Source: Heterodontus francisci (taxonomy: Eukaryota). From it: DNA of 64,000 bases. Location of the stretch: contig NC_090413.1 in the NCBI RefSeq assembly GCF_036365525.1, positions 28,782,262-28,846,261 of the forward strand, in the 5' to 3' direction. The translations under genes were made by a program, and so were the position numbers. This document shows positions 4,417 through 58,090 of this stretch, piece after piece. Within the stretch, counting starts at the first letter, position 1; every line of letters begins with the position of its first letter. Below the pieces are notes generated by a model that saw only the letters and a program-made list of their open reading frames with translations, had not been told where the DNA came from and made no database searches.

Positions 4417-5256
4417 AACAACTGCCATTTATACAGCACCTATAATGAAGTAAAACTTCACATGGTTCTTCACAGGAGAGTTATCAAACAAAATTTGACA
4501 CTGAGCCACATACTGAAGAACATAAGGAGAAATTAGAACAGAAAAGAAAGACTTGAATTTATATCGTGCCTTTCACGATCATAGGATGTCTCAAAATGCC
4601 AATAAAGTACATTTGAAGTTATGAAGTGTACTGTTATATTGTAGGAAATCCGGCAGCCAAATTGCACACAGCAAGCTTCCACAAATAGTAAGTAATAATG
4701 ACCCAGATAATCTGTTTTTGTGATGTTGATTGAGGAATAAATATTGGCCAGGACTCTCCTGCTCTACTTTGAAATAGTGCCACCTGAGAGAACAGGCAGG
4801 GCTCGGCTTAATGTCTCATCCGAAAGACGCACCTCTGAAAATGCAGCACTCCCTCAGCACTGCAGTGGGATGTCAGCTTTGATTTTGGTGCTCAAGACCT
4901 GGAGTGTGACTTGAACCCACAACCTTCCGACTCAGAGGCAAAAGTGCTACTAACTATGTCCCAACTAACACAAGTGACGAAAAGCTTGGTCAAAGATGTA
5001 GCTTTTAAGGAGAGTCTCAAAGGAGGAGAGGCAGAGAGGTTTAAGGAGAGAATTCCAGAGCTTACAGCTTAGGCAGCTGAAAGCAGAGCTGCTAATGGTG
5101 GGGCAATGAAAATCAGGATGCAGAAGAGACCAGAACTGGAGGAGTGCAGAGTTCTTGGAGGGTTATAGGGGTGGGGGAGGTTACAAAGATAGAGAGGGGT
5201 GAGGCCATGGAGACATTTAAATACAAGGATGAAAATTTTAAAATTGACGTGTTGTC
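4417..5256 (-). mobile_element. L2 LINE 3' fragment with a nested DeuSINE/SacSINE1-like SINE (~4548-4970)
   Basis: FKIFILVFKCLHGLTPLYLCNL...PPRTLHSS is the L2 ORF2 C-terminus; the SINE has a tRNA-like head (ggttgtgggttcaagtcacactcca on minus). Confidence 0.75.
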
Positions 5257-5660
5257 TCACAACTAGTCTTCATTTCGTCTGTTTGTAAAATATACAATAC
5301 AGAAACAATATTTATGCCAGTAAAGCAAACAGAAAGACAGTTGTTTTCACAGAGCTGTTGTTACCAGTGCTGAACCCATCTAGATACCGAAGTTCAGGTG
5401 ACGATTCAGTGCCAGTAGAAATCAAAATAAAATTTTAAACACACTGATTTGAAAACAGTTGAAAAATACTGAGTGTTGTCAGCAATGAGCTGTTCTTACA
5501 GTTAGTGCATTAATGACTGCGAGTGGACTTTAACATTGCAATCACTGGCGTTCCTCTGTAACAATATTAACAGCATCATTGGAATTTCTCCCCAAAATCA
5601 GGACATGCAATATCACTTTAATCCGTTAAACCTGTTTGTAATTGTCACTATCCCACCAGG

Positions 5661-5869
5661 TTATGGATATGGATTAAGTTTGGTTAAAGGAACATTTTCC
5701 TGGTATTCATTTCCATTGGGGATCTGTGGATTGTTGTTTGGATTTGCTTTGTATACTTTATATAATCCTCTTTTTTGGGCACTGGATATTTTGTACAAGG
5801 CAACGATTGCTGATATGATCAATGCTAACATGATTCCTGTGATCACCATTTCTGGTCTCCATGATTCAC
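5661..5869 (-). CDS. Copy 1 second terminal exon B (alternative or relic TM + tail)
   Basis: Same acceptor tgttttcatag and same phase, open frame. GESWRPEMVITGIMLALIISAIVALYKISSAQKRGLYKVYKANP...KLNPYP*. Confidence 0.65.
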
Positions 5870-6388
5870 CTATGAAAACATTCAAGAAAACACTTACACA
5901 AATTATTGACAGTCCCAGGGCAATATATTTATTACAAAACTTCTTATCATCTCCAAGATCTGTGTTGTAAACAATGGGAATTTTTCATGGAATGTCGAGT
6001 GTGTTATATTCAGCTCTTCCCTCTTTGTCAAGTTGTGTTCTTCACCTCCTTTCATTCACCCCGTACCACAACCCAGTACTGATTATCATAAAGGATAGAC
6101 AGCCTATTCCAGGTCCCTGTCTTTTCCCATTTACACCACTCCAAGGAATTGTATATACATGATGCAAATACATTTTTTTTTGTGGAACTTAGATGACTGA
6201 GTGTTGTCAGCAATGAGCTGTTCTTACAGTTAGTGCATTAATGACTGCGAGTGGACTTTATCATTGCAATCAGTGGCGTCCCTCAGTAACAATATTAACA
6301 GCATCGTTGGAATTTCTTCCCAAAATCAGGACATGTAATATCATTTTAATTGGTTAAACCTGTTTGTAATTGTCATTATCCCACCAGG

Positions 6389-6585
6389 TTATGGATCAAG
6401 TTTTTTCAAAGGGACATTTTCCTGGTATTCATTTCCATTGGGGATCTGTGGATTGTTGTTTGGTTTTGCTTTGTATACTTTATATAATCCTCTTTTATGG
6501 GCACTGGATATTTTGTACAAGGCAACAACTAATAGGATCATTGCTAATATTCCTGCGATCACCAAAAATAGTATCCATAGTTCAC
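6389..6585 (-). CDS. Copy 1 terminal exon A: transmembrane + cytoplasmic tail
   Basis: Acceptor tgttttcatag, phase 1. GELWILFLVIAGILAMILLVVALYKISSAHKRGLYKVYKAKP...KKLDP*. Confidence 0.88.
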
Positions 6586-7112
6586 CTATGAAAACATACA
6601 AAAAAGTTACATAAATTATTGACAGTCCCAGGGCAATGTATTTATTACAAAACTCCTGATCATCTCTAAAATTTGTGTTATAAACAATGGGAATTTTTCA
6701 TGGACTTCCAAATGTGTTACATTCAGCTCTTCCGTCTGATTTTCAAGTTGTGTTCTTCACCTCCTTTCATTGTCCCCATACCACAGCCCAGTCCTGATTA
6801 TCATAGTGGATAGACTGCCTGTTCCCAGGTACCTGTCTTTTCCCATTTACACTACTCCAAGGAATTGTATATAGGTAATGGAGATCAATTTCTCTCTGTG
6901 GAACTTAGATTTTACTAAATCATAACTATAGAGTCCATCATCTTCCCTGGCATGGAGTGCACCAGTCAGTGTCGGGGAAGGGAAGAAGAGTTTATATTTA
7001 AGGCGGAGACCCTTTGTTAGAACAAAGAATGATGTGGGAACAGGAGAGAGGGGTATCTGTAACCCTGCTATTCGCCTCCTATTTCTCTTTTTGGAATTGA
7101 CAACTGTGTTTT

Positions 7113-7467
7113 AGTTTAGTTTAGTTTAGTTTAGAGATACAGCACTGAAACAGGCCCTTCAGCCCACCGAGTCTGTGCCGCCCATCAACCACCCATTTAT
7201 ACTAACCCTATACTAATTCCATATACCACATCCCCACCTATCCCTATATTTCCCTACCACCTACCTATACTAGGGGCAATTTATAATGGCCAATTTACCT
7301 ATCAACCTGCAAGTCTTTGGCATGTGGGAGGAAACCGGAGTACCCGGAGGAAACCCACGCAGACACAGGGAGAACTTGCAAACTCCACACAGGCAGTACC
7401 CAGAATTGAACCCGGGTCATTGGAGCTGTGAGGCTGCGGTGCTAACCACTGCGCCATTGTGCCGCCC
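7113..7467 (-). mobile_element. tRNA-derived HE1/V-SINE-like SINE
   Basis: A box tggcgcagtgg, B box gggttcaattc, CR1-like tail (CTAAA)n; 10-bp TSD actgtgtttt; empty site in copy 2 at ~56388. Confidence 0.9.
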
Positions 7468-8288: not shown

Positions 8289-8570
8289 CTTTGATCCTGA
8301 TGTCCACTTCCTTCTCATGAGTTCCATATTTATTGGTAACTGTACATTTATAAATGCCTTGATGTTCTGATGTTGCGTGGGAAATATGGAGGACTCCAAG
8401 AGGACCATCCTGAATGTTACTGTCATTACTGGGGGCTTCCCACTTTAATGTCGGCGTGGGGTTTCCACTGGAATTGCAGATAATTGTAACCTCATCACCT
8501 TCACTGAGGGTTACTGGAACCCCTGACATGGTTTGGTTATTTACTGATATGGTTGTATTTCGAGGTTTAT
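8289..8570 (-). CDS. Copy 1 Ig domain 6 exon
   Basis: Acceptor tcttttccag, donor G|gtcagt, 282 bp. EGDEVTIICNSSGNPTPTLKW...HQGIYKCTVTNKYG. Confidence 0.9.
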
Positions 8571-8959: not shown

Positions 8960-9205
8960 ACAGAATGACTGAATTTACAGAGGAGTTTCTGGATCCATAC
9001 TCATTGGTAACTGTGCACGTGTACAGACCACTATGCCACATTTGAACTGATGGGATGTGGAGTATCTCTCTGCTGAGTATCTTCCCATCTTTGGTCCAGA
9101 ACACCTGGGGAGCTGGGTTCCCTGCACCATGACATGTTAAATTCTGTGATTTCCCTTCAATCCAGTCTTCTTGTGCTTTAAAGATCTGTGCTTCCATTGG
9201 AGCAT
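8960..9205 (-). CDS. Copy 1 Ig domain 5 exon
   Basis: Acceptor aatttacag, donor T|gtgagt, 246 bp. WIEGKSQNLTCHGAGNPAPQVFWTKDG...HSGLYTCTVTNEYG. Confidence 0.9.
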
Positions 9206-14948: not shown

Positions 14949-15230
14949 ACAAGACGTGGAGGGTGTCAACCTGTTGTTTAACATGGCTTGTTGACGGATC
15001 TTGAAGTTTCAGTTCAGCCTCGCAGGTGTACTGCTGTCCATCCAGCTTTGCTTCTGCATCCACAGTATAGTAGATACTGAGCCCAGTACTACTTGATTCA
15101 TTCACTAATATGTCATTTCTGTTCTTCAGACTGAGTTGAAGTTCCCCTGAGACATTAAACACACTGCAGGTAATATTAACTGGGTTTCCTTCAGGGCTGA
15201 TTGGTACTTGGATTTCAGGGTCAGGAAAAA
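14949..15230 (-). CDS. Copy 1 Ig domain 4 exon
   Basis: Acceptor atttttacag, donor T|gtaagt, 282 bp. FPDPEI...EGNPVNITCSV...DGQQYTCEAELKL...LHVL. Confidence 0.9.
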
Positions 15231-15871
15231 CTGTAAAAATAATAGAGAAAAGTTGTTAGAAACACTCCCAAGCTTATCTTACAGCTGCTCAGTGTGAAAA
15301 TTCATCCTGGAGACTTGATCTGTTGTGCTGTTTTATCATTGATCCATATTACATGCCTGTGCCACACAGACACATCCAGCTACTGCACTAAGGCTGGGTA
15401 GAGAACTTTAATCACTTTCAATCAATGACCATCTGATACATGATTTTGTAAGTGGAACCGGATTTAAAAAAAAATCTGAGATCATACCCTATCTTCACGA
15501 AATGTACTCACTCATCACTGAGCACAACTCATTTATCTCATTACATGATTGTTCCTTTGTCAAGATGAGACATAATATTGTGTTTACAATCCAAATCCAG
15601 TCACTTGTTTCAACACTCGCTTTTAATCAGGGAATATCGAGTGCGACTAACACTTTCTCATGATCTTGGAATACCAAGTGTTTCTAAGACATCTTAAGCT
15701 GCTTCTCTTTGAGTATCTGTGAATATGCAAATATTTGAATAAACTTCCTAACTTGTCACTCAACGGAAGGGATTTTATTGTTTAAAGTAAACCTGACATG
15801 CTGCAATTTTGACTATCATGAACTATCAGAATGCTATCAAATCATAATGCCTCCACAACCAGAATCCTTAC

Positions 15872-16165
15872 CAAACACCTCAATGAAGACGCTATCATTC
15901 TTTGGTGGAACTGATGGATATTCCTCAAAATCTGCTGTACAGACGACTTCCATCAGACCAGCCACCTGTGGTTTCCATGTCGTTGTTGTTCGGACAGTAT
16001 TAGAATTTGGCCTTGTTGTAACTGAATTCAGTTCTTTACCATCCTGAAACCACCTGACTCTCATCTTCTCAGCAGGATAGACATTTGGGACCTCACATGT
16101 TAACGTGGCCTCTTGCTTCATTTCTATGGGCCTCTTGTCAAGGATTCGAGGTGGATCCAGAAAAG
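15872..16165 (-). CDS. Copy 1 Ig domain 3 exon
   Basis: Acceptor tgtgttgcag, donor G|gtaagg, 294 bp. ATLTCEVPNVYPAEKMRVRWFQDG...VVCTADF (VCAM/ICAM C2-like). Confidence 0.9.
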
Positions 16166-17355
16166 CTGCAACACAGACAAGGAATTCACTTCATTTTGAT
16201 TTGCTGTGCTGTGATTCAGTTGCTATTGGACAGAGTGGAAAACTGACCAGTACTGGTATTCCCCAATACACACATCCCAGGAGTCTATCACACTGTTCAC
16301 TGAGAGAAAACTGGAGCCATCATCAGGAGATCACATACTTTATTTTTTAAATTAATTCTTCCTACTCTTCAGGCAGCCCTAGTATCTAAATCTGCTACTT
16401 TTGTGCCAGCCACTATGAGTGGTACAGTCTGATGCATTCACTGATTAACCTTTATTGTGATCTTTACTTGTATCTGCTACAACATCCCAGTTGAGGCTCA
16501 GACCTCAGTGTGGGTGACTCTGGGTGTAAATCTTTCAAGCTTTTTTGCTGCTCCTGCATGGTGAGATTGACTGATCTGCTCCTTGACCATCACCTCTACT
16601 GACCACTATGAGGTGTGCAAAGCTGTCACATGAGTTTCCTTCAGACATTCCCGTCACTATTAGGAAGCATCTGGCTGCCATCTGGCAAAAGCAAGAGAGT
16701 GATAATATCAACATGTGGGCCATCCTGGAGATAAACATACTTTGCACCAATTTGTTTGTTGCAGAAGAGTAATCAAGCACAGGGAAAAGCCATTTGGCCC
16801 AGAAAGCTCATTTTACTAATGGCTTATCTCTGCGAGCCTAGTATTCAAGCATTGCCTGAAAGATTATTGAGTAAAAGATACCTACTATTATCTTCTTATT
16901 CGATTAATATTGGCTTATCTATAGCATTTAATATTTTATACACCTTCCTGAGAGTGTCCTTTAGCCTTCCTCTTGCTACACTGCAGAGCTCATCTTCATA
17001 CCAGGAATCAGGTTAGGGCCCTTGGATGTCTTTTTGGAGTCAAGTTAATAAGATCTTAGGTTGGTAGAAAAGGTCTTGCAAAATCTTTCTTGACCCATTC
17101 AAACTAAGCTTTGCGCACACCCAAGCTGGCTAAAAGATTTGCAGTAATTTACCGCTACACTTTGGGCAATTGAGAAAACTGCATATTTGAGGTGGGTCCA
17201 AGATGAACAATTCTTATCCAACACATTTTGTGGTATGGATAAAACAGGAGCTAATGAGATCATCACTGCATTGCTTCCCACTGTTTATTCTCTACAAATT
17301 ATCGATATTTAACCATTCTCAAAAAGAGAACATTTCTTGTTCAAGTGGAACTTAC

Positions 17356-17670
17356 AGTAAGTTTGCAGAGTCACAGAGGAGTTTGTGATTGGTTTTGTGG
17401 TGTTTGAGCCCAAGTCCACCTCTGCCAAGCAGGTGTACTCCTGTCCATCATCTGACATACTTGCAGTGAATTGGAAGATGTTCCTCAATCTTTTATCTTC
17501 ATCCGGGAAACCTTCTTCTCCTGTGAAATTCCTCTGAACAATCTCACTCCCTCTCAGCCATGTGAGTTTGAGTTTATTGTTTGGATAGACCCTCGGACCA
17601 ATACACTCCAGACTATATGTCTTGTTAACTTCCAGCACTTCAGGAGGTGATGTAATGTTTAACTCTCGAT
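17356..17670 (-). CDS. Copy 1 Ig domain 2 exon
   Basis: Acceptor ctttaacag, donor T|gtaagt, 315 bp. YSLECIGPRVYPNNKLKLTWLRGSE...DDGQEYTCLAEVDLG, ICAM D2-like. Confidence 0.9.
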
Positions 17671-18161
17671 CTGTTAAAGGAGAATCAGTTAACATAATTC
17701 ACTGAAATAATGTATCTGGGCACCCTCTGCTCCATCACACATGCATCTGAGTGAATATGTGCAACATGACTTTATCCCAACCACAAATACCATGTTCAAT
17801 CTCCCCCATTAAAGATTAGCACATTGATCTCTCTTCACTCTGCATTATACCATCATCAGAAATAATTAAGTCATTAACTGACAGCAATAACTACACAAAG
17901 TTGTATTTTCAGGCAAGAAGTTTTCCTAAAGTGGAATACTGAAACAATTGGCATCTACATAGAATCTGATCCCCAACTGAACACACCTTGAATTAAAATA
18001 AACTGACAAAGCTATATTTGTTCCAAATACTGAACTGAATGCATGCAAATTATAAGCTGAAGCTTAATTATTGCATTGTTTAAACATTTAAAATAGTCTA
18101 ACTGTAAATTAACTAGTCATTTGGTAGTACAGAACTTGAGTATTGCTGAGAATAGAGATAT

Positions 18162-18506: not shown

Positions 18507-20000
18507 CAAAGTGATTCCTGACAATGCAGCCGGCCATTGATGTCATCAGGCTGCGCCAAGGTGCGCACATGCACAGACCGGTTCCTGCTCTCTGTGCATG
18601 CGCTGCGTTCCGACTTGCCAGGACTGGTTAGCGCATGCGCCGATGATGTCATCGCGTGATGTGTGCATCTTCGGGCAATGCGCCTGGTCGGCCTCTGCGC
18701 ACACGCTTTATGCATACAGCAATGCAACGCCAACGGGTATTCACCCATGCGTCAAGCTCCGCTCACCCCACCCTCGTTGCTCTCTCCGGCCGCTCCGCTC
18801 CCCCACTCGCTGCTCTCTCTGGCCGCTCTGCTCCCCCATTCGCTGCTCTCTCCGGCCACTCTGCTCCCCCCCTCGCTGCTCTCTCTGGCCGCTCCGCTCC
18901 CCCACTTGCTGCTCTCTCTGGCCGCTCCGCTCCCCCCCTCGCTGCTCTCTCTGGCCGCTCCCCACCCCCCTCGCTGCTCTCTCCGGCCGCTCCGCTCTTC
19001 CGGCTGCTCTGCTCCCCGCCTCGCTGCTCTTTTGGCTGCTCCACTCCCCCCCTCGCTGCTCTTTCGGCCGCTCCGCTCCCCGCCTCACTGGTTTCTCCGG
19101 CCGCTCCGCTCTTCCGGCTGCTCCGCTCCCCCCCTCGCTGCTCTTTCGGCTGCTCTGCTCCCCCCCTCGCTGCTCTCTCCGGCCGCTCTGCTCCCCCGCC
19201 TCACTGCTCTCTCCAGCTGCTCCGCTTTTTCAGCTGCTCTGCTCCCCCCCTCGCTGCTCTCTCCGACCGCGCCGCACCCCCCCCTCGCTGCTCTCTCGGC
19301 CGCTCTCCTCCCCCCACTCACTGCTCTCTCCGACCGCGCCGCTCCCCCCCTGGCGGCTCTCTCAGCTGCTCCGCTCCCCCCCTCGCTGCTCTCTCGGCTG
19401 CTCTCCTCCCCCCCTCACTGCTCTCTCCGACCGCGCCGCTCCCCCCCCTGGCGGCTCTCTCAGCTGCTCCGTTCCCCCCCCTCGCTTCTCTCTCGGCCGC
19501 TCTGCTCCCCCCTCGCTGTTCTGTCCGGCCGCACCGCTCTTTCGGCCACTCCGCTCCCCGCCTCACTGCTCTCTCCGGCCGCTCCGCTCTTTCAGCTGCT
19601 CCGCCACCCCCCCTCCTCGCTGCTCTCTCCGACCGCGCCGCTCCCCCCCTCGCTGCTCTCTGGCCGCCCCGCTCTTTCCGGCCGCTCCAATCCCCCCCTC
19701 CCCCCCCCCCATCCCCGGCCCGCTCCGCTCCCCCGACCCCGACCTGGGCCCGCTCCGCTCCCCTTCCACCCCATATCCCCGGCCCGTTCCGCTCCGCTCC
19801 GCTCCCCCCGTCCCGCTCCCCCACTGTCTCCCTCCCGCCATTGTGTGCTACCATGTGTTTAGGTTAGGTTATCTTCGTGTGATTATTTGAGCAGCACCAT
19901 CTTTAGTCCTGGCAGCTGCCTGAAGTCGCAGACTGTAACGTTTTCGTGACATGTGCCACTGCAGCGCCACCTCGTGGTAGCATTGTCAGCAAATGCAGCC
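18507..20000. mobile_element. Non-autonomous element with 9-bp TSD and internal minisatellite (MULE-like candidate)
   Basis: TSD attaatata (18498-18506 / 20001-20009); inverted CTGACAATGC exactly 11 bp in from each end. Confidence 0.75.
18755..19835. repeat. GC-rich minisatellite, unit ~33 bp like CCCCCCTCGCTGCTCTCTCCGGCCGCTCCGCT
   Basis: Many degenerate tandem copies with higher-order variants. Confidence 0.95.
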
Positions 20001-21685: not shown

Positions 21686-22386
21686 ACCCTGGTATACTCT
21701 GGGTGGGAAACTTCAATGTCCATCACCAAGAGTGGCTCGGTAGCACCACTACTGACAGAGCTGGCCGAGTCCTAAAGGACATAGCTGTTAGACTGGATCT
21801 GCGGCAGGTGGTGGGGGAACCAACACGAGGGAAAAACATACTTGACCTCGTCCTCACCAATCTGCCTGCCGCAGATGCTTCTGTCCATGACAGTATTGGT
21901 AGGAGTGACCACCGCACAGTCCTTGTGGAGACGAAGTGCCGCCTTCACATTGAGGATACCGTCCATCGTGTTGTGTGGCACTATCACCATGCTAAATGGG
22001 ATAGATTTCGAACAGCTCTAGCAATGCAAAACTGGGCATCCATGAGGCGCTGTGGGCCATCAGCAGCAGAATTGTACTCAACCACAATCTGTAACCTCAT
22101 GACCCGGCATATCCCCCACTCTACCATTACCATCAAGCCAGGAGACCAACCCTGATTCAATGAAGAGTGCAGGAGGGCATGCCAGGAGCAGCACCAGGCA
22201 TACCTCAAAATGAAGTGTCAACCTGGTGAAGCTACAACACACGACTATCTGCGTGCCAAACAGCGTAAGCAGCATGCGATAGACAGAGCTAAGCGATCCC
22301 ATAACCAACGAATCAGATCTAAGCTCTGCAGTCCTGCCACATCCAGCCGTGAATGGTGGTGGACAATTAAACAACTAACTGGAGGA

Positions 22387-24073
22387 AAACAAGAAATGCT
22401 GGATTCACTCAGCAGGTCTGGCAGCATCTGTGGAAAGAGAAGCAGAGTTAACGTTTCGGGTCAGTGACCCTCCTTCGGAACTGACAAATATTAGAAAAGT
22501 CACAGATTATAAACAAGTGAGGTGGGAGTTGGGCAAGAGATAACAAAGGAGAAGGTGCAGATTGGACCAGGCCACATAGCTGACCAAAAGGTCACGGAGC
22601 AAAGGCAAACAATATGTTAATGCTGTGTTGAAAGACAAAGCATTAGTACAGATTAGGTGTGAATATACTGAATATTGAACAGCAGCAAGTGCAAACCTGA
22701 AGAAAAACAACCTGAAAAAAACAGTGGGTAAGCAAACTGAACAAACGGAGATGAAATGAAATAAATGCAAAAAAAGATTGTAAAAAATGTAAAAAGGAAT
22801 GTCAAAAAAAAAAGGAAGAAAAAATAACTAAAAATGACTAAAAATGAAAGTAAAGTGGGGGGCTGTCATGCTCTGAAATTATTGAACTCAATGTTCAGTC
22901 CGGCAGGCTGTAGTGTGCCTAATCGGTAGATGAGATGCTGTTCCTCGAGCTTGCGTTGACGTTCACTGGAACACTGCAGCAATCCCAGGACAGAGATGTG
23001 AGCATGAGAGCAGGGGGGAGTGTTGAAATGGCAAGCAACCGGAAGCTCAGGGTCCTGCTTGCGGACTGAGCGGAGATGTTCCGCAAAGCGGTCAGCCAGT
23101 CTGCGCTTGGTCTCCCCAATGTAGAGGAGACCACACTGTGAGCAGCGAATACAGTATACTACATTGAAAGAAGTACAAGTAAATCGCTGCTTCACCTGAA
23201 AGGAGTGTTTGGGGCCTGGGATAGTGAGGAGAGAGGAGGTAAATGGGCAGGTATCACACCTCCTGCAATTGCAAGGGAAGGTGCCCTGGGACGGGGACGA
23301 GGTGGTGGGGGACATTGGGGAGACCAAGCGCAGACTGGGTGACCGCTTTGCGGAACATCTCCGCTCAGTCCGCAAGCAGGACCCTGAGCTTCCGGTTGCT
23401 TGCCATTTCAACACTCCCCCCTGCTCTCATGCTCACATCTCTGTCCTGGGATTGCTGCAGTGTTCCAGTGAACATCAACGCAAGCTCGAGGAACAGCATC
23501 TCATCTACCGATTAGGCACACTGCAGCCTGCCGGACTGAACATTGAGTTCAATAATTTCAGAGCATGACAGCCCCCCACTTTACTTTCATTTTTAGTTAT
23601 TTTTTCTTCCTTTTTTTTGACATTCCTTTTTACATTTTTTACAATCTTTTTTTGCATTTATTTCATTTCATCTTAGTTTGTTCAGTTTGCTTACCCACTG
23701 TTTTTTTCAGGTTGTTTTTCTTCAGGTTTGCACTTGCTGCTGTTCAATATTCAGTATATTCACACCTAATCTGTACTAATGCTGTGTCTTTCAACACAGC
23801 ATTAACATATTGTTTGCCTTTGCTCCGTGACCTTTTGGTCAGCTATGTGGCCTGGTCCAATCTGCACCTTCTCCTTTGTTATCTCTTGCCCCACCCCCAC
23901 CTCACTTGTTTATAATCTGTGACTTTTCTAATATTTGTCAGTTCCGAAGAAGGGTCACTGACCCGAAACGTTAACTCTGCTTCTCTTTCCACAGATGCTG
24001 CCAGACCTGCTGAGTGAATCCAGCATTTCTTGTCTTTGTTTCAGATTTCCAGCATCCGCAGTATTTTGCTTTT
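22387..24073. mobile_element. Penelope-like insertion arranged as a long inverted repeat
   Basis: GIY-YIG ORF (NVVYCIRCSQCGLLYIGETKRRLADRFAEH); arms 22387-23122 and 23312-~24033; 14-bp TSD aactaactggagga (22373-22386 / 24074-24087). Confidence 0.92.
23940..23976 (+). ncRNA. Variant minimal hammerhead motif in the Penelope pLTR (mirror copy 22446-22482 on minus)
   Basis: AGTT-CCGAAGA-A-GGGTC ACT GACCC-GAAA-CGTT-AACT; core reads CCGA instead of CTGA. Confidence 0.6.
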
Positions 24074-26184: not shown

Positions 26185-27360
26185 AATGAGTTCAATCAGG
26201 GCAAATGCGAGGTGATGCATTTTGGAAGATCCAATTCAAGAGTGAACTATACAGTAAATGGAAAAGTCCTGGGGAAAATTGATGTACAGAGAGATTTGGG
26301 TGTTCAGGTCCATTAGATTAGATTAGATTAGAGATACAGCACTGAAACAGGCCCTTCGGCCCACCGGGTCTGTGCCGACCATCAACCACCCATTTATACT
26401 AATCCTGCACTAATCCCATATTCCTACCACATCCCCACCTGTCCCTATATTTCCCCACCACCTACCTATACTAGTGACAATTTATAATGGCCAATTTACC
26501 TATCAACCTGCAAGTCTTTTGGCTTGTGGGAGGAAACCGGAGCACCCGGAGGAAACCCACGCAGACACAGGGAGAACTTGCAAACTCCACACAGGCAGTA
26601 CCCAGAATCGAACCCGGGTCCCTGGAGCTGTGAGGCTGCAGTGCTAACCACTGCGCCACTGTGCCGCCCTCATTGTTCCCTGAAGGTGGCAACGCAGGTC
26701 AATAGAGTGGTCAAGAAGGCATACGGCATGCTTTCCTTCATCGGACGTGGTATTGAGTACAAGAGTTGGCAGGTCATGTTACAGTTGTATAAGACTTTGG
26801 TTCAGCCACATTTGGAATACTGCGTGCAGTTCTGGTCGCCACATTACCAAAAGGATGTGGATGCTTTGGAGAGGGTGCAGAGGAGGTTCACCAGGATGTT
26901 GCCTGGTATGGAGGGCGCTAGCTATGAAGAGAGGTTGAGTAGATTAGGATTATTTTCATTAGAAAGACGGAGGTTGAGGGGGGACCTGATTGAGGTGTAC
27001 AAAATCATGAGAGGTATAGACAGGGTGGATAGCAAGAAGCTTTTTCCCAGAGTGGGGGATTCAATTACTAGGGGTCACGAGTTCAAAGTGAAAAGGGAAA
27101 AGTTTAGGGGGGATATGCGTGGAAAGGTCTTTACGCAGAGGGTGGTGGGTGCCTGGAACGCGTTGCCAGCGGAGGTGGTAGACGCGGGCACGATAGCGTC
27201 TTTTAAGATGTATCTAGACAGATACATGAATGGGCAGGAAGTAAAGAGATACAGACCCTTAGAAAATAGGCGTCATGTTTAGATAGAGGATCTGGATCGG
27301 CACAGGCTTGGAGGGCCGAAGGGCCTGTTCCTGTGCTGTAATTTTCTTTGTTCTTTGTTT
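26185..27360 (+). mobile_element. CR1 3' fragment, near-identical to ~29737-30553
   Basis: LVQPHLEYCVQFWSP...RPLENRR; (TTCTTTG)n tail. Confidence 0.9.
26315..26670 (-). mobile_element. HE1/V-SINE-like SINE nested in CR1
   Basis: Same family as 7113-7467; (CTAAT)n tail; short TSD catt. Confidence 0.9.
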
Positions 27361-40325: not shown

Positions 40326-43300
40326 TCATAGAGTTATACAGCACAGTAACAGGCCCTTCGGCCCACCGTGTCCGCGCCGGCCATCAAGCCTATCTATTCT
40401 AATCCCATTTTCCACAATTGGCCTGTAGCCTTGGATGCTATGGTGTTTCAAGTGCTCATCTAAATACTTCTTAAATGTTGTGAGGGTTCCTGCCTCTACC
40501 ACCTCTTCAGGCAGTTTGTTCCAGATTCCAACCACCCTCTGGGTGTAAAATATTTTCCTCAAATCCCCTCTAAGCCTCCTGAACCTTACCTTAAATCTAT
40601 GCCCCCTGGTTGTTGACCCCTCCATTAAGGGAAAAAGTTTCTTCTGATCTAACCTATCAATGCCCCTTATAGTTTTGTATACCTCAGTCATATCTCCCCA
40701 TGCCTTCTCTGCTCTAAGGAAAACAACCCTAGCCTTTTCAGTCTCTCTTCATAGCTGAAATGCTCCAGCACAGGCAACATCCTGGTGAATCTCCTCTGCA
40801 CCCTCTCCAGTGCAATCACATCCTTCCTATAGTGTGGTGCCCAGAACTGTACACAGTACTCCAGCTGTGGCCTAACTAGCATTTTATACAGCTCCATCAT
40901 AACCTCCCTGCTCTTATATTCTATACCTCGGCTAATAAAGGCGAGTATCCCATATGCCTTCCTAACCTTAGGTTGCTGCCTTCAGTGATCTACTGAGAAA
41001 TACACGAAGGAACCTCTGACCCTCTGTACTTCCTAGGGTCCTACCATCCATTGTATATTCCCTTGCCTTGTTAGTCCTCCCAAAATGCATCACCTCACAC
41101 CTCTCAGGATTAAATTCCATTTGCCCCAGCCCTGCCCATCTATATTGTCGTGTAATCTAAGGCTTTCCTCCTCATTATTTACAACACCACCAATTTTCGT
41201 GTCATCTGCAAACTTACTGATCATACCTCCTATATTCATGTCTAAATCATGAATGTACACTACGAACAGCAAGTGTCCCAGCACCGATCCCTGCAGTACA
41301 CCACTGGTCACAGGCTTCCACTCGCAAAAACAACCCTCGCCCATCACCCTCTGCCTTCTGCCACTAAGCCAATTTTGGACCCAAATTGCCCTGAATCCCA
41401 TGGGCTTTTACATTCTTATCGAATCTCCCATGTGGGACCTTCTCAAAAGCCTTACTGAAGTCCATGTAGACTACATCAACAGCTTTACTCTCATCTACAC
41501 ATCTCGTCACTGCCTTGAAAAACTCGATCAAGTTAGACACAATCTCCCCCGACAAAGCCATGCTGACTATCCCTGATTAATCCCTTCCTCTCCAAGGGGA
41601 GATTAATCCTGTCCGTCAGAATTTTTTCCAATAGTTTCCCAACCACTGATATTAGACTCACTGGCCTGTAATTACCTGGTTTATCCCTACTACCCTTCTT
41701 AAATAATGGTACCACATTTGCTGTCCTCCAATCCTCTGGTACCTCTCCTGTGGCCAGAGAGGATTTGAAAATTTGTGTCAGAGCCCCTGCAATCTCCTCC
41801 CTTGCCTCACATAACAGTCTGGGATACATCTCATCTGGGCCTGGGGATTTATCCACTTTTAAGCCCGCTAAAACAGCTAATACTTCCTCCCTTTCAATGC
41901 TAACATGTTCAAGTATATCACAATCCCCCTCCCTGATCTCTACACCTACATCGTCCTTCTCCATAGTGAACACAGATGAAAAGTAATCATTTAAAACCTC
42001 AACCTATGTCCTCCGGCTCCACACACAGATCGCCATGTTGGTCCCTAATAGGCCCTACTCTTTCCCTGTTATCCTCTTGCCCTTAATATACTTAGAAAAC
42101 ACCTTGGGATTTTCCTTTATCTTTCCCGTCAGTGTTTTTTCATGTCCCCTCTTCGCTCTCCTAATTACTTTTTTAAGTACCCCCCCTACACTTTCTTTAC
42201 TCCTCTAGTGCTTCCGCTGTTTTCAGCACTCTGAATCTGCCATACGCCTCCTTTTTTTTTCCTGATCCAATCCTCTAAATCCCTTGACATCCAGGGTTCC
42301 CTGGACTTGTTGGTCCTACCCTTCACCTTAATGGGTACATGTTGGCTCTGTACTCTCACTATTTCCTCTTTGAATGACTCCCACTGATCTGATGTAGACT
42401 TTCCTACAAGTAGCTGCTCCCAGTCCACTTTAGCCAGATCCTGTTTTATCATCTTAAAATCGGCCTTCCCCCAATTCAGTACCTTTATTTCTGGTCCATC
42501 TTTGTCCTTTTCCATAACTACCTTAAATCTTACAGAGTTATGGTCACTATCCCCGTACTGCCCCTTCTCTTGTAGGGCTTTCTACCTCTCTGTGATTTTC
42601 CTACATATCTGCTCCTCTATTTCTCCCTGACTGTTTGGCAGCCTGTAGTACACTCCCAGCCAAGTGATTGCCCCCTTTTTGTTTTTAAATTCTACCCATA
42701 TGGCCTCATTTGAGGAACCTTTTAAGATATCATCCCTCCTTACTGCAGTAATTGACTCCTTGATCAACAGTGTAATGCCACCTCCTTTTACCCCCTCCCC
42801 TGTCATGCCTGAAGATTCTATACCCTGGAATATTCAGCTGCCAGTCCTGCCCCTCCCTCAACCATGTCTCTGTGATAGCAATAATATCATAATGCCATGT
42901 GCTAATCAATGCCCTCAATTCATCTGCCTTACTACTAAGACTCCTTGCATTAAAATAGATTAAATCTAGCCTTGCATTTTTCACTTGTGCATAAACAGGT
43001 CTGTATTTACTCTGCCTTCGAAATTGACTCAGTTTCTCTTCTATATTTGACTGTGCATCAAACTAAAGCCCTCCCTCCTGCACCACCTCCTCAGCCACGC
43101 ATTCATCTGCTCTATCCTCCTATTCCTGTACTCACTAGCACGTGGCACTGGGAGTAATCCAGAGATTACAACCTTTGTGGTCCTGCTTTTTAATCTTCTA
43201 CCTAGCTCCCTAAATTCTTGTTGCAGGACCTCAACCCTCTTTCTACCGATGTGGTTGGCACCAATGTGTACCATGACCTATGACTGTTCACCCTTTCTCT

Positions 43301-44040
43301 TCAGAATGTCCTGCAGCCGCTCCAAGACATCCTTGACCCTAACACCAGGGAGGCAACATAGCATCCTGGAGTCTCGTTTGCGGCCACAGAAACGCCTGTC
43401 TGTTCCCCTTACAATTGAATCCCCTATCAGTATGGCTCTCCCACTCTTTTTCACCCCCTCTTGTGCAGCAGAGCCATCCATGGTGCCACAAATTTTGCTG
43501 TTGCTGCTTTCCCCTGGGAGGCCATCCCCCCCCCAACTGTATCCAAAGCGGTGTATCTGTTTGAGAAAGGGATGGGCACAGGGGACCCCTGCACTACCTG
43601 TCTGCGCCTACTACTCCTCCTGGTGGTCACCCATCCCTTTTCTGCCTCTGCAGCCATTACCTGCTGTGTGACCACCTTGCTAAATGTGCTATCCACGATG
43701 TCCTCAGCATCTTGATGTGGACCAAGACCTCTAGCTGTTCACCCTCCCCCAGAAGAATGTCCTGCAGCCTCTCTGTGACATCCTTGACCCTGGCACCAGG
43801 GAGGCAGCACACCATCCTGGAGTCACGTTTACTGCCGCAGAAACGCCTGTCTGTTCCTCTAACTAAGGAATTCCCTATCTCTACAGCTCTTCAACTTCTC
43901 TTCCACCCTTCCAGTGCAACTGAGCCACCTGTGGTGCCACAAATTTGGATTTGACTGCACTCCTTCGAGGAACCATCACCCTCACCGGTAACCAAAATCG
44001 ATTAGCGAGTGAGATCATAGCAGGGGACTCTTGCACTATC
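40326..44040 (-). mobile_element. Long decayed CR1 (ORF1 esterase region present twice, plus ORF2)
   Basis: ILIGDSIVRG, CLPGVRVKDV, YFNARSL, AITETWL, KPGNYRPVSL, KFADDTK; 43714-44040 is a second diverged ORF1 piece. Confidence 0.9.
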
Positions 44041-44890
44041 ATTGATGAAGCAGCTGAAGATGGTTGGTTAGGGCACTTTCCTGAGGAACTCCTGCAGCAA
44101 TGTCCTGGAGCTAAGATGATTGTCCTCCAACAGCCACAACCATTTTCCTTTGTGTTAGATATGACTCCAGACAGTAGAGAATTTCCCCCTGATTCTCATT
44201 GACTTCAATTTTACTGGGCTCCTTGATGCCACATCTAGACAAATGCTACCTTGATGTCAAGGGCAGTCACTGTCTGGAATTCAGCTCTTTTGTCCATGTT
44301 TGGTCCAAGGCTGTAATGAGGTCTGAATCTAAGTGGTCCTGGTGGAACCCAAACTGATCATCGGTGAGCGGGTTATTGCTGAGTAATTGCCACTTGATAG
44401 CCCTGTTGATGACACCTTCCATCATTTTGTTGATGATTGAGAGTAGACTGCTGGGGAGGTAATAGGCTGTAGAAGATTTGTCCTGCTTTTTGTGGATGGG
44501 GCATATCCAGGCAATTTTCCACATAGTCGGGTCCATGCTGTACTGAAACTGAAATTGTACTGGAACAACTTGGCTAGGGGTGTGGCTAATTCTGAAGCAC
44601 AAGTCTTCAGCACTGCAGCTGGGTTGTATCCTTTGCTGTATCCTGTGCCTTCAGCTGTTTGTTGATGTCACGTGGAGCGAACCGCATTGCTTTGGCTGAA
44701 TATTGGCATCTGTGATCATGGGACCGTCACAAGGAGGCTGCGATGGATCATTAACTCAGCACTTTGGCCGAAGATGTTCGCAAACACTTCACCATCATTG
44801 AGAATGGGGATGTTTGTTGAAACTCCTCCTCCCATTAATTATTTAATTGTTGACCACCATTCATGACTGGATGTGCTCGGACTGCAGGAA
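44040..44890 (-). mobile_element. Old CR1-group fragment
   Basis: LKTCASELATPLAKLFQ and QFGFHQ motifs, homologous to 24340-24720. Confidence 0.8.
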
Positions 44891-45391
44891 TGTTGCTCCT
44901 TCTGGAGTAACAATTACTCAATTCCCATCAAACTGAAGCAGATCTGAGGACAGATCGACTGCTATTCTGTGAAAGCATCAACATCCCAAGGTGACCTCTG
45001 CCTATGAAATGAAGGCAGTTTGTATTTGTACATGGCAGATGAACAAATGCAGGACAAAGTAAAAATGTTGCTTCTTCAAACACTGATCAGACGCTTGGGT
45101 TTCCAAAAGGTTTCACTACCTTTACTTAAAAGATTCTAAGGCCTACTCAATGTTACACAATTGATGACTCACTTTCATTCAATGACTATCCAATAAACCA
45201 GCTGAGTTCAGGATCAAACTGTGTCTGAGTGTTAATCTATTTTACACCACTCTGCACACAGTTCAGTATTTCACCAGCGCCAGGCTACCCTAAATCAGAC
45301 ACATTCTGGTTATCCTTAAACACTTTTCCCTGGCTCCACTTTCCTTTTATGTCAGATAATCAAATATGTTGGGTCAAGAGTTTTCACTTAC

Positions 45392-45667
45392 TGTATACTG
45401 TGACCACCTTTTTTTCCTCCTTCAGCTGATAACCGTCTGATTTACAGATTACACTGCATGGTGCTGCAAAATCCCATTTCTGCATACTTGGGAAATAGTC
45501 TGTGGACCAGTTAGTGCCATTTCTTCTGTTCGGATGTATCCCTGATTTATATTCCACAGTCATTATCGGTTCTGCACATGATGTACTGCAGTTCACCTCT
45601 AAAGAATCTCCAAATTCCACAGCTGAGGGGTTTGTGTCAATCCAAATCTCAAATCCAGTTACACTTG
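45392..45667 (-). CDS. Copy 1 Ig domain 1 exon (ICAM N-terminal type)
   Basis: Acceptor ttccttggcag, donor A|gtaagt, 276 bp. Encodes SVTGFEIWIDTNPSAVEFGDSLEVNCSTSCAEPIMTVEY...PCSVICKSDG...VVTVY; four-Cys CSTSC/CxxxC pattern, compare ICAM-2 GSLEVNCSTTC. Confidence 0.9.
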
Positions 45668-48143
45668 CTGCCAAGGAAACAAAACAGAATAGATTCAGGA
45701 AAAGGAAATCCTTTTAATTGCAGAACTCATGATTAACTCCCCACAGTAACTGCACACTTTCATTTTGTATCTGGGCACTTTTATAGTGGAAAAACTGATG
45801 GAAATTAAAACTGGAAGCTCAAAAAACCATACAGGAGGCTAAAAATTCAAATCCACGAACTGCTTTCAAAAAGTGGAAGTTAATAAATGTGTGGTTGCCC
45901 GTTAATAAATTTTAAACTTCCAGTATATGTGTAAAGAACTGTAAATGAAAGAAGTATCAACTCAGCCTTGGGTTGGATAAGCAGGCATTAGAAAGACCAA
46001 ATAATGAGCTAACCATGACCGCAACATAGAAGGGAAAGCAGTAGATTGGGAATGTTTGCAAGATAGGTTCAGATAAAGAGAGCCCTTTAGCCAATTTATA
46101 GTTATCTTTCTGGCTTACTATCTTCGCATTTAGCCATTTCAGAAATTAGTGCTGTGTCCCGGCCAGATGCAGTGATGGACAAGATAATTCCTCTGGTGCA
46201 GGACCTCGCTTAGAGGAGGTTAACTGCAGAATGGGCAAGGAGGTCAATATCCTCAACATTTATCAAGCAAAATTGTAAATTGAAAATAATAATCCCATTA
46301 CACAGGAGGAGCGACAGGAATGAATATCAGAAACACAGAGGCACTGGTCTGCTTCGGGTGACTGAGAAATTGCCGCACTTTGTGTGCCAGCATGGTGACT
46401 GGACCCTTTGGTTTTGCCCAATTCTGTGTTACTCATTGTAGCCTCATACAGATCTGTCAGAATTGCTGGTTTCAATGTGATGGCAACAACAAGCAGTAAG
46501 TGCCAGTGGGGTGAAACCCACATGGAACTTTGTTTTTTTCAATTCAAATGCTAGAAAAGAGCCAAATGACCTCTTCAGTTGTCAATAACAGACCAGAGCT
46601 GGTGTTGGGTGTGGAGGCTCCATGCCTGGGATCTGCTGGGGCTCTCCACTGCAGTGGACCTCCGCAGGCACTGCTGCCTTAAAATCCATGTCTGGTTTTT
46701 ACTCTAAAGGGTACAGAGGAATGGCCACTGCTCCCAGTGTTTTTCACAAGCGCTGGCTCACTTATTTAAGACAAACCAATAGGGCAGAACAGAAAGTGCC
46801 AGAGTCGCAAGTTTAGATTTTTAGCACAAGTTGAGTCCCCGCCCTCACCTGTAGTTCTTTACCTCTCAAGTCTCTTTTGAGAAAGAACCCAGAGAACCCC
46901 AAACTAATATTTCCCAATGTTGAATTAAAATAGAGCAGGAAAATGTAAAAACCCCAGTAGTTTAACCATAAGGTCGTAAAGATCTGTTACCACCCTGAAT
47001 ATAATGTAAAGAGGAAATTACCTTGTTTACTTCAACCCACCTGTCATACTGAAAGTTAAGATGGAGAAGTAAATACATCCAACTGTTGAAATCAGCCTAA
47101 AGTCCATAACTCCGGGGTTTTGGAGAGAATGGATCTTCACAGTTTGCAGGCTGGAATCTGAAATTGCAACTGCTGTTGCTGCCTCTTGGAGATATTGCGT
47201 TACAGATCGTTATCAAGGATTGCATGAGCATCGCCCTTCCGGGACATTATTTGGAATTAAAACATTCATTTTGGGACTTAATGTGAGGAGATTCCACAAA
47301 TACTTTTCTCTCATTTTAACATTTTGCAGATTAATCAGGCTTTTTGAAAGTTTTTCGATGTCGCTATAGGAGTTCCCGATGTGGTTGTAGGGGACAGGAT
47401 TGAGTGTGCCTGTGTACCAGCTGTCGCACCCTGGCAGCTGGGATACAGGCTGCTGTGTCTTAGGGCATTCAGGATCTCATAGCTACTACTAGACCATTGA
47501 TCCTGCTAATGAGCTGGGACACATATATGTATGGCACGCCCAGTGGAATGGTGATAATTGGAGGAGTCCTGCCTGATACTGCCATCTCCGTGGACAGTAC
47601 ACATGTGAAGCCTCTGGACTTCTCCCTCAGCTATCCTGCCAGTGATATGCAAGGGGAAACTTTAGGCTGTCCATGAACAAGCTCCAGGGATACCTTCACA
47701 GGAATAAGCTGCTACTAGTGCAGAGCCACCTTAGTCCCATGAGGTTTCTGTAGCAAAGGAGCAGTCAACCACCTCTTGTGATACTGGACATCAAGTTGCA
47801 ACTTGAAGAAGCACTGGAAGTTGAGAAATAAAAGCACCTTTAGGCACCAGGGGAAGTATGGTGTCAGGGACAAGTAGGTTGGCTCATGTTCACTTTGGAG
47901 GTTCTTTTTAATTAAAAGGAGAATATTCATTCTGTTGTACTCACTTATTCATGGACATTAAATACAGGATTAAAAACTAGATAAATATAACCCAGGGGAG
48001 AGGTGAGTAGCTGCCCCCAATATCAAGGCAGCATTTCACTGAGCATAGCAACAAAGAGCTTGAGCAAAACTGAACTCAGTGGGAGTTAGAGGCAAAAGTC
48101 TCCAGTGACTGGAGTTATCCCTAACAGAAAGGAATGTGGTTGT

Positions 48144-48278
48144 ATAAAAGCAAAACACTGCGGATGCTGGAAATCTGAAATAAAAACAAGAAATGCTGGA
48201 ACCACTCAGCAGGTCTGGCAGCATCTATGAAAAGAGAAGCAGAGTTAACGTTTCGGGTCAGTGACCCTTCTTTGGAAC
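48144..48278 (-). mobile_element. Solo Penelope pLTR fragment with a degenerate hammerhead
   Basis: Reverse-complement match to 23941-24073; TSD gtggttgt (48136-48143 / 48279-48286). Confidence 0.82.
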
Positions 48279-49150
48279 GTGGTTGTGGTTGTTGGCTGCC
48301 AATCATCACCAGCCCCAAGTCATTCACTGCAAGTGTTCTTCATGGAAACATCCTCAGTACAATTATTTTCAACTACTTCATCAGTTACCTCCCTCAGTCA
48401 TCAGGTCAGGACTGGGTCAGTTCATTGAGAATTCCACAATCTATAGCTCCATTCATAACCCCTTTGATATTGGGAACCCTATCCAGGTTCAGCTTCTGGC
48501 AGGCAATAACGTCCAGGCTTGGGCTGACAAGTGGCAGATAACATTCCTTCTCCAATTATACCAGGTAATGACCATCTTGAACAAGAGAAAGTCCATCCAT
48601 TTCCTCTTGACCTTCAGTAGCACCAGCATCACCAGGAGCTTGACAGAGTAGACACTGAGGTTGTTTCCTATGGATGGGGAATCTAGAACACAGAGGCATG
48701 GGATAAAGGGGCCAATCATGAGGAGAAATTTCTTCACTCAAAGGGCTGTGAATCTTTGGAATTCTCTACCGCAGAGGGTTGTGGATGCTCCATCTTTGAA
48801 TATATTTATGGCTGAGATGGAAACTTTTATTGTCTCTCAGGGAATCAAGGGATATGGGGAGCGAGTGGGAAAGCAGATTTTAGGACAAGTATCAGCCGTG
48901 ATCATAGTGAATGGCGGAGCAGGCTCGAGGGGCCGTATGGTCTTCTCCTGCTTCTATTTCTTATGTTCTTACATCCCCGCACCATCATCTTGAGGATCAC
49001 CACTGATTAGAATCTGAAGAGAACCAGCCTTATGATCACCATGGTAGGGCAATCACTTCCTGATCCTTGAAAACCACACCACCATCCAGAAAACTTATGG
49101 CAGGAGTGTGATTGTATGTTAACCACTCAGCTGGGTGGGTGCAGCTTTAC
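48279..49150 (+). mobile_element. Old CR1-group fragments with a nested CR1 3' end (~48640-48971)
   Basis: VQAWADKWQITF and FFTQRAVNLWNSLPQ motifs. Confidence 0.75.
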
Positions 49151-55230: not shown

Positions 55231-55673
55231 CTGAGGTGTTGTCTCACATCACCTGTTTGTAAAATATACATTGCAGAAACAATATTTATGCCAGAAAACA
55301 AACAGTCACAACAGAAATAGATTAGCCTTCATCTCATTTAGTGGGAAAGCCAGTTTTTTTCGCACTGCTATTGTTACCACTGCTGAACCCAACTAGATAC
55401 CAAAGTTCAGGTGACTTTCCAGTGTTTGTGGAAATTAAAATATAATTTCAAACACACTGATTTGAAAACAGTCCAAAAATACTGAGTGTTGTCAGCAATG
55501 AGCTGTTCTTACAGTTAGTGCATTAATGACTGCGAGTGGACTTTATCATTGCAATCAGTGGCGTCCCTCAGTAACAATATTAACAGCATCGTTGGAATTT
55601 CTTCCCAAAATCAGGACATGTAATATCATTTTAATTGGTTAAACCTGTTTGTAATTGTCATTATCCCACCAGG

Positions 55674-55870
55674 TTATGGATCAAGTTTTTTCAAAGGGAC
55701 ATTTTCCTGGTATTCATTTCCATTGGGGATCTGTGGATTGTTGTTTGGTTTTGCTTTGTATACTTTATATAATCCTCTTTTATGGGCACTGGATATTTTG
55801 TACAAGGCAACAACTAATAGGATCATTGCTAATATTCCTGCGATCACCAAAAATAGTATCCATAGTTCAC
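55674..55870 (-). CDS. Copy 2 terminal TM + cytoplasmic exon (A type)
   Basis: Protein identical to exon A at 6389-6585. Confidence 0.88.
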
Positions 55871-57227
55871 CTATGAAAACATACAAAAAAGTTACATAAA
55901 TTATTGACAGTCCCAGGGCAATATATTTATTACAAAACTCCTGATCATCTCTAAAATTTGTGTTATAAACAATGGGAATTTTTCATGGACTTCCAAATGT
56001 GTTACATTCAGCTCTTCCGTCTGATTTTCAAGTTGTGTTCTTCACCTCCTTTCATTGTCCCCAAACCACAGCCCAGTCCTGATTATCATAGTGGATAGAC
56101 TGCCTGTTCCCAGGTACCTGTCTTTTCCCATTTACACTACTCCAAGGAATTGTATATAGGTAATGGAGATCAATTCCTCTCTGTGGAACTTAGATTTTAC
56201 TGAATCATAACTATAGAGTCCATCATCTTCCCTGGCATGGAGTGCACCAGTCAGTGTCGGGGAAGGGATGAAGAGTTTATATTTAAGGCGGAGACCCTTT
56301 GTTAGAACAAAGAATGATGTGGGAACAGGAGAGAGGGGTATCTGTAACCCTGCTATTCGCCTCCTATTTCTCTTTTTGGAATTGACAACTGTGTTTTGCT
56401 AGGCTTTTCTATTTCAATTTCTTACCTGATCTGCAGGAGTTCCATTTTTTTAACTCACTCCGATTTTCTCATTTTACCTCCTTACACACTCCATGTCCCT
56501 CTATTATCTTTCATTAATTTAATAAATCTTTCCATTTTCTGCTGCAAAGATCGCACGTCATCCAACAATTTCCTGTTTTTCTTTAAAGCCAAATTTCACT
56601 GATACTTCTTCTGTTTGTTTGTCCCTACACTTTGCTTCTAATTCTATTTGAAGATCTTGCTCATCTTCCATTTTTCAGCCAAAAACATTCACCATCCATT
56701 CTCTGCACAGATTTTGACTGACCTGCTCTGTTGCAGCCACTCCTGGTTTTGTTTTACATTGTGATTGCCCCCCCTCACTATTAGAATTGAAGCCCAGCCA
56801 TGTGATGCAGCTCACTGAGCTGCCAACACCCTGCACCATGACCGGCAGTGTGTGGATTCACAGCTGCAACTCCCCTGCTGCGGAGTTATTGCTCAGGCAG
56901 TCTGGGCAAACACAGAGCAGGAATAAGGCGCTCCTACACACAAAGAGAAACAAGTGGAAGGGAGTATCACTCTGGGCCATTCTTACTAATGTCCTAGAGG
57001 CCAATTACAGAGCAGCATTGTGAGAGGCAGGCAGTAGTTTATCCATTTGGCCCATTGCCAGCAAGTGTGGAGTAGAACAGGAGGAGTCTTAAAGAAAATA
57101 AATGAATAACTGAGTTAAGTAAACCGAAATGGCACTCGGGATTTATTTGGGATAACAGAAATGCTGCTTCAATCCACAAAGGAATAATTATTTATTCTTT
57201 GCATTCTGACCAATATTACAAACTGAC

Positions 57228-57509
57228 CTTTGATCCTGATGTCCACTTCCTTCTCATCAGTTCCATATTTATTGGTAACTGTACATTTATAAATGCCTTG
57301 ATGTTCTGATGTTGCGTGGGAAATATGGAGGACTCCAAGAGGACCATCCTGAATGTTCCTGCCATTACTGGGGGCTTCCCACTTTAATGTCGGCGTGGGG
57401 TTTCCACTGGAATTGCAGATAATTGTAACCTCATCACCTTCACTGAGGGTTACTGGAACCCCTGACACGGTTTGGTCATTTACTGATATGGTTGTATTTT
57501 GAGGTTTAT
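57228..57509 (-). CDS. Copy 2 Ig domain 6 exon
   Basis: Paralogue of 8289-8570, 282 bp, splice sites intact. Confidence 0.88.
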
Positions 57510-57844
57510 CTGGAAAAGAGAAAAGGAAAAGATGAAAAGAGGCAGGAAAGGCACATCACAGGATCACTGACACAGCACCACATCAGTGCTTGGATTAGCT
57601 GCATTCCCAAACTTAGTCACATATTGTGCTCTCATCCATCTTCAACAGCCAGTTCAGAACATCTGAATCCCTACAGTTGGATTGAAGTCCAGTGAGTGTT
57701 ACTGCCTGGAATTTACTCCCACTCATCTGTCATTTTATAAAGCCAAAGTGAAATGCAGTTTCTTTGTAAATATAAACTCAACATAACAGCCACTCACTGG
57801 ATCAGCTTGCATAAGGATATCACTTCCTGTAATCCATTACTCAC

Positions 57845-58090
57845 ACAAAATGACTGAATTTACAGAGGAGTTTCTGGATCCATACTCATTGGTAACTGTG
57901 CACGTGTACAGACCACTATGCCACATTTGAACTGATGGGATGTGGAGTATCTCTCTGCTGAGTATCTTCCCATCTTTGGTCCAGAACACCTGGGGAGCTG
58001 GGTTCCCTGCACCATGACATGTTAAATTCTGTGATTTCCCTTCAATCCAGTCTTCTTGTGCTTTAAAGATCTGTGCTTCCATTGGAGCAT
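57845..58090 (-). CDS. Copy 2 Ig domain 5 exon
   Basis: Paralogue of 8960-9205; one synonymous difference seen. Confidence 0.88.

Follow-up and report, generated by a model that had tools for sequence, protein, structure and literature searches.

Tandem terminal exons in a shark ICAM-like gene: a second transmembrane/cytoplasmic exon that is intact and perhaps mostly spare

The 64,000-nucleotide stretch of Heterodontus francisci DNA analysed here (the window; contig NC_090413.1, positions 28,782,262 to 28,846,261 of the forward strand) carries on its minus strand an ICAM-like gene that ends in two tandem transmembrane (TM)/cytoplasmic exons, A and B. On balance we lean towards regarding the second of them, exon B, as an intact spare exon that arose by recombination in a tandem gene array and that most transcripts either run through or end short of, without splicing to it.

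The gene and its two terminal units

Unit A (6196..6912, minus strand, 717 bp) and unit B (5468..6195, minus strand, 728 bp) align at 87.7% identity over 730 columns (E=0), so that a single gene carries a tandem pair of homologous coding exons. Each unit comprises about 326 bp of intron end (327 bp in unit A and 326 bp in unit B), an acceptor, the TM/tail coding part and about 190 bp of UTR. Both acceptors read TGTTTTCATAG followed directly by GTGAA, and both exons are phase-compatible with the phase-1 donor (GT at 8288-8287) of the last Ig exon. Both frames are open, in coding parts at 6389..6585 for exon A (TM, cytoplasmic tail and stop) and at 5661..5869 for exon B (a 19-residue hydrophobic segment and a near-identical tail), both on the minus strand; the branch-point-like motif of B is altered in H. 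francisci. A tandem duplication of about 720 bp with the same phase-1 acceptor and two open frames had been proposed in a first-pass annotation, and alignment and reading of the acceptors bear it out. The 12 bp by which exon B exceeds A (two 3-bp gaps in the TM and one 6-bp gap at the C-terminus) do keep the frame, as had also been claimed, and the translations match those given earlier.

Only a few residues separate the last Ig domain from the TM, so that a stalk is nearly absent. The TM of exon B is hydrophobic, its best 19-mer scoring 2.54, compared with 3.32 in A and 2.44-3.12 in 10 homologues. When the 6.0-Gb genome was searched at the DNA level for B, three matches came back, namely B, A and the A-type exon of copy 2 of the gene, so unit B is single-copy in the genome; a protein search of the genome added two distant TM exons, both of the same array. 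Among 24 longer candidate proteins the B peptide matched one, P0001, which has the A form, and among proteins of similar length it matched none.

P0001 bears the NCBI name 'intercellular adhesion molecule 5-like isoform X1' (Heterodontus francisci), and the ICAM/VCAM-like member is listed by NCBI as 'intercellular adhesion molecule 5-like' (Heterodontus francisci, XP_067877401.1). Mapping of P0001 by tblastn gave minus-strand exons at 47107 (signal peptide, approximately 47033..47107), at 45.4-45.7 kb (Ig domain 1, 45387..45704, the upper end of which includes some intron), and at 17671 (Ig domain 2, 17357..17671), 16166 (Ig domain 3, 15873..16166), 15231 (Ig domain 4, 14950..15231), 9205 (Ig domain 5, 8961..9205) and 8570 (Ig domain 6, 8289..8570), followed by A. 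The protein has a signal peptide, six Ig domains, a single TM and a short basic tail, with weak matches to ICAM_N (24.8 bits, cut-off 21) and ICAM1_3_5_D2 (43.3 bits, cut-off 27.5); it thus has the make-up of an ICAM/VCAM-like molecule, with N-terminal and D2-type Ig domains of the ICAM kind, one TM and a short tail.

Divergence, conversion and origin of the tandem

Substitutions between A and B number 14 in 75 sites of the stalk/TM part, 7 in 119 of the tail, 41 in 323 of the intron piece and 11 in 193 of the UTR. The differences had been said to cluster in the stalk and TM. This holds for the TM in comparison with the tail (p=0.008) but not in comparison with the intron piece, over which the TM shows no significant excess (p=0.19), and there is almost no stalk in which differences could gather. 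TM exons are, moreover, variable across all homologues. The non-coding UTR is as alike between A and B as the coding tail, and the likeness of the tails therefore needs no selection; reaching as it does into the UTR, it looks like gene conversion.

Unit A differs from the single A-type unit of copy 2 (55481..56197, minus strand; exon start 55870; no B unit behind it) at 3 of 717 positions (99.6% identity). This is less than the distance between H. francisci and the related organism described below, from which we infer that the tandem was already in place when A and copy 2 were homogenised. Exon B and the 3' flank of copy 1, in contrast, lie 12-14% from copy 2 (the flank, 5275..5467, minus strand, has 26 substitutions in 191 columns against its paralogue in copy 2), and on this divergence B together with its flank is an old block. 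Relative to the flank, exon B occupies the place of copy 2's only exon. Its TM has the length seen in Heptranchias P0015 and its C-terminus the PYP of Carcharodon P0013; since both features are lost in A, B is not a decayed copy of present-day A.

Identical runs of 29-65 bp are shared by A and B. Of 13 changes private to the related organism at sites where A and B agree in H. francisci, 7 fall inside the two longest of these runs, which together make up 98 of the roughly 624 sites (p=0.002 by a binomial test, the runs having been picked afterwards), as would be expected if A recently overwrote B in the H. francisci lineage. The 5-mer TCAGT stands at the A/B junction (6196..6200, minus strand), at the end of unit B (5468-5472) and just upstream of copy 2's unit (56199-56203), which points to a microhomology join. 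Two histories fit these data equally well: a tract of copy 2 may have been pasted in front of a native exon B, or a duplication in place may have been followed by conversion of A alone. The earlier suggestion that B is the original exon, stranded behind a pasted A-type body, accordingly agrees with the flank and conversion data, but the second history predicts the same pattern. A peptide tree of 18 rows did not resolve A, B or most of the homologues, and a dN/dS estimate for the TM from the protein alignment was set aside, its gaps disagreeing with the DNA alignment. No duplicated terminal exon was found in six loci self-compared around other copies, and no second TM exon in six further members drawn from the isoform clusters of 10 related proteins.

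Under the reading that we prefer, in which B is a spare exon, TCAGT microhomology would have fused one terminal unit, at its end, with the intron of a second such unit, creating the A-B tandem before H. francisci and its relative separated. Gene conversion with copy 2 would since have kept Ig2-Ig6 and A near-identical, B and its flank, for which there is no in-register partner beside the gene body, would have diverged by 10-14%, and short tracts of A would still have overwritten parts of the tail and UTR of B, all as suggested by the identities. In the contigs Ig6 is seen spliced to A and transcription is seen to continue past A into the intron piece of B. A presumably wins as the first acceptor transcribed, most read-through mRNAs are likely terminated by an AATAAA copied with the intron, some 45 nt short of the B acceptor, and a base change at 5893 likely weakens the branch point of B in H. 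francisci. The protein made would then be the A form, with B lengthening the 3' UTR and supplying material on which recombination can act.

Transcript evidence and competing readings of exon B

Nine sequencing runs were found, seven presumed to be RNA and two of unrecorded type, and four of them (X1, X2, X5 and X8) were compared with positions 5100-7100 of the window. All four are assembled contigs whose RNA nature is guessed or unrecorded, and they represent at most three samples. X5 derives from a related organism (organism B), about 3% diverged, and from a study other than that of X1 and X2. The Ig6 exon lies outside the compared stretch, and splices appear only as loose ends. Ig6 letters are joined to exon A in contigs of three of the four runs (X1, X2 and X8); of the joints and loose ends listed for the contigs of the four runs, none lies at 5869 or connects Ig6 with B. 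Read-through from the UTR of A into the intron piece of B is present in contigs of X1 (5914-6225) and X2 (5912-6225). These two runs, from one sample, differ at 6027 and 6171 in the read-through contig, and both haplotypes may carry the A/B junction.

The AATAAA at 5928..5933 (minus strand) is the only canonical hexamer from the stop of A to 4400; it lies 64 nt before the B acceptor and is a copy of the intronic hexamer upstream of A. The read-through contigs of X1 and X2 end at 5914 and 5912, 14-16 nt past it, and poly(A) use near 5912 may be proposed by inference only, because 5912 also coincides with a k-mer boundary against copy 2's intron. In the branch-point-like motif of B (5888..5897, minus strand), position 5893 is G in H. 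francisci, giving TAAG where A has C and thus TAAC; in the related organism it is T and the motif is intact. Within 45 nt upstream of the acceptor, B has one UnAy motif compared with three for A. It also carries a further AG at -25 and a GTAAGT that resembles a donor, and the motif loss, the extra AG and the GTAAGT are in part due to the G at 5893. The acceptor pyrimidines are similar, 12 of 17 for B and 13 of 17 for A. In-register splicing between A and B was also considered and rejected, the shared 32-bp run containing no AG/GT.

One contig of X5, spanning 5743-6255 (513 nt), contains 60 letters of the A UTR, the A/B junction, the intron piece, acceptor and TM of B, and retains 52 of 56 B-diagnostic letters; the adjoining B-tail contig (found in X5 and also in X8) retains 16 of 17. 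The tandem is therefore not an assembly error and is older than the split of the two organisms, and the expectation, under which the duplication would have fallen, that only one unit exists is contradicted. Nor is B disabled in the relative, since its frame and AG are intact in both organisms. At least 20 substitutions separate the two over 5485-6195 (about 3%); in the coding part, counted by hand, there are three replacement and two silent changes, and no indel is among the differences listed, which include 12 of the 14 in the X5 contig. By a rough calculation, calibrated on very few indels, the chance that the frame and AG of B survive neutrally would be about 0.17 for the time since the two species separated and 0.10 for half the distance between A and B.

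That the second unit is an artefact, a haplotype or paralogue wrongly joined in assembly, is a notion to which we give almost no credence: a tandem array of near-identical blocks invites such errors, and X1 and X2 may derive from the assembled individual, but the junction is bridged in another organism and another study, and the window contains no N. A more serious competitor is the proposal of the first-pass annotation that the choice of last exon could swap the membrane anchor beneath the same ectodomain, with conceivable effects on dimerisation and shedding. B would then be a true alternative last exon, minor or tissue-restricted, to which Ig6 could splice once transcription has passed A; its anchor would be shorter but hydrophobic, its linker a polar Arg-Pro-Glu and its tail almost that of A, and we consider this doubtful. 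The preservation of frame, AG and hydrophobic segment in two organisms argues for it, and this, with the low neutral chance (0.10-0.17), the intact branch-like motif of the related organism and its contigs in X5 and X8 with the B-type tail and the copy-1 flank, counts against a spare exon. It also speaks for use of B that ancestral lengths lost by A are retained, that read-through into B occurs and that X5 and X8 have B-type tail contigs, accompanied in X8 by the copy-1 flank; among human tandem-duplicated-exon events described in one survey, 77 of 236 swap C-termini (PMC9741552). Against use of B stand the lack of an Ig6-B joint or loose end among those listed, the X5 contig, which passes the B acceptor unspliced with 127 letters on the exon side, the altered branch-like motif with AATAAA upstream, and the few replacement and silent changes, which give no purifying signal between the organisms (a hand count against one relative). 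Annotated proteins are a weak indication in the same direction: all five members of the 90% cluster of P0001 end otherwise than in B, two from copy 1 and two from copy 2 in A and one in copy 3's exon. The loose letters at the starts of Ig6-junction contigs, 24 in X1 and 22 in X2, indicate other branch points, where a branch to B would be expected to leave 19, a weak pointer, as the 24 letters could also reflect a merger of copy 1 with copy 2, or a branch leading to an exon of the copy-3 type. What stands of the proposal is an intact B in a relative and the presence of two units; the splice to B was not seen among the listed contig ends or the cluster proteins, and contigs may lose minor isoforms.

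Coverage of X8 can be read in several ways. The run has no cover over the intron piece and TM of B, yet the B tail has a depth of 12.7, and the depth of the A TM (60.4) is close to that of the A tail (47.5) and B tail together; its spliced A-TM contig ends on the 30-mer that opens both the A-type and the B-type tail contigs. This pattern would result if a spliced B had been removed as a bubble, if the allele were a hybrid, or if read-through were patchy. In an assembly the spliced B path would form a 90-nt bubble beside A; assemblers may remove such bubbles, and assembled contigs can hide a minor isoform. The absence of cover in X8, like that over the B coding part and proximal flank in X1 and X2 and over the A TM in X5, was not counted as evidence. 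A hybrid would arise if the A-B tandem acts as a recombination substrate, crossover in the identical stretches yielding one-unit alleles with the TM of A and the tail and flank of B in some individuals, so that B would reach protein only in hybrid form. The 29-65 bp runs, the signs of recent A-to-B conversion and the shared 30-mer of X8 would suit such alleles, which we nevertheless think rather improbable, as the X8 pattern comes from a single run, read-through or a removed bubble gives the same contigs, and X5 has the full tandem. Minor use of B, if it occurs, is more likely in the related organism than in H. francisci. One may tentatively picture an anchor switch in a young gene, caught in mid-evolution, working in the relative, where the branch point is intact and the B tail and flank would be transcribed, and being shut in H. 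francisci by the branch-point change and the co-duplicated intronic poly(A) signal, with conversion keeping the tails alike and leaving the TMs free; we would not expect it to be so.

The wider array and related systems

The tandem array to which the gene belongs holds eight Ig6-like exons and extends over approximately 28.76-29.02 Mb (8289-47107 and 55481-64000 of the window), with near-identical Ig2-Ig6 bodies and exchanged D1 and TM/tail ends. Between copies 1-5, Ig2-Ig6 are 93-100% identical where present; in comparison with copy 1, the signal peptide and D1 range from 57% (copy 2) to 85% (copy 3), and the TM/tail is 100% identical in copy 2 and 31-35% in copies 3-5. Domain and block identities thus indicate an ectodomain homogenised between paralogues with differing TM/tail, and the mosaic of identity along the array is a pattern typical of gene conversion. 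Copy 1 combines a copy-3-like D1 with a copy-2-like tail, and the copies are candidate combinatorial pairs of ligand-binding and anchor parts that conversion may have made.

CEACAM arrays are a gene-converted group of Ig receptors, and in SIGLEC11/SIGLEC16 ectodomains have been converted between genes with different signalling ends (PMC5701461). Copies 1-5 resemble both in that ectodomain exons are homogenised between neighbouring genes that differ in TM/tail. In those pairs, as described, the ligand-binding N-domain is converted and the tails are opposite in signalling, whereas in the shark D1 differs (57% between copies 1 and 2); the tails of A and B, unlike those of the SIGLEC and CEACAM pairs, are nearly the same, with few residues different. 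Among the titles listed by a literature search, none concerned this shark array.

If used, B would be a case of C-terminal tandem duplicated exon substitution, a kind already known from the 77 C-terminal examples among the human events cited above, of which the terminal ones often cover TM helices (PMC9741552). As in these events, the shark gene has a tandem of two homologous coding exons at its 3' end, both served by a single donor of matching phase. It differs in that the surveyed events have both forms annotated and are mostly ancient, while in the shark only A is seen spliced and the pair is 10% diverged and known from two close organisms. In Drosophila Dscam, exons 17.1 and 17.2 are an internal, mutually exclusive TM/juxtamembrane pair, both shown to be functional (PMC7685093); like A and B they are tandem TM-segment exons of an Ig-superfamily adhesion receptor, but the shark exons are terminal, with their own stops and UTRs, and the use of B is putative. 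Mammalian ICAM-1, as far as it is described in one account, has isoforms that arise by exon skipping or by frameshift to a soluble form, with dimerisation placed in Ig domains 3-5 (PMC10215618); the second TM exon sets the shark gene apart from it.

If only spare, B would be an ordinary by-product of a converting tandem array, instructive as a case in which conversion leaves terminal exons stranded or gives rise to them, and it would illustrate that tails can be near-identical without selection. Should B prove to be used, an ICAM-like gene would have gained an alternative TM exon recently and at a time that can be dated, with a one-base difference between close species. For comparative immunologists the array itself, in which a shared Ig2-Ig6 body is combined with exchanged D1 and TM/tail ends, may hold more interest than exon B.

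Several further features of the array were observed. Over long stretches, the signal-peptide and D1 exons of copy 1 and their upstream region (43056-49146) match those of the next gene downstream (about 1-9 kb before the window start) at 95-99% identity, although the body of that gene is shorter and its TM exon is unrelated. Two distal paralogues (L016:3831-4001 and L017:4494-4664) have 58% Ig6 identity and, relative to Heptranchias P0026, in-frame stops in the cytoplasmic part of the TM exon, two in L016 and one in L017, which could mark either truncated tails or pseudogenes. In the TM exon of copy 5 (L015, about 6900) a nonsense change ends the tail earlier than in copies 3 and 4. The last intron of copy 1 contains an insertion (7116-7465), absent from copy 2, that we take to be SINE-like and that has copies, 89-92% identical, at 26313-26677 and 50165-50520. 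The D1-D2 intron of copy 1 contains a C-rich minisatellite with 32-33 bp units (18756-19795), absent from the matching place in copy 2, and a long inverted repeat (22386-24036) with arms of 426 bp at 98% and 352 bp at 92%.
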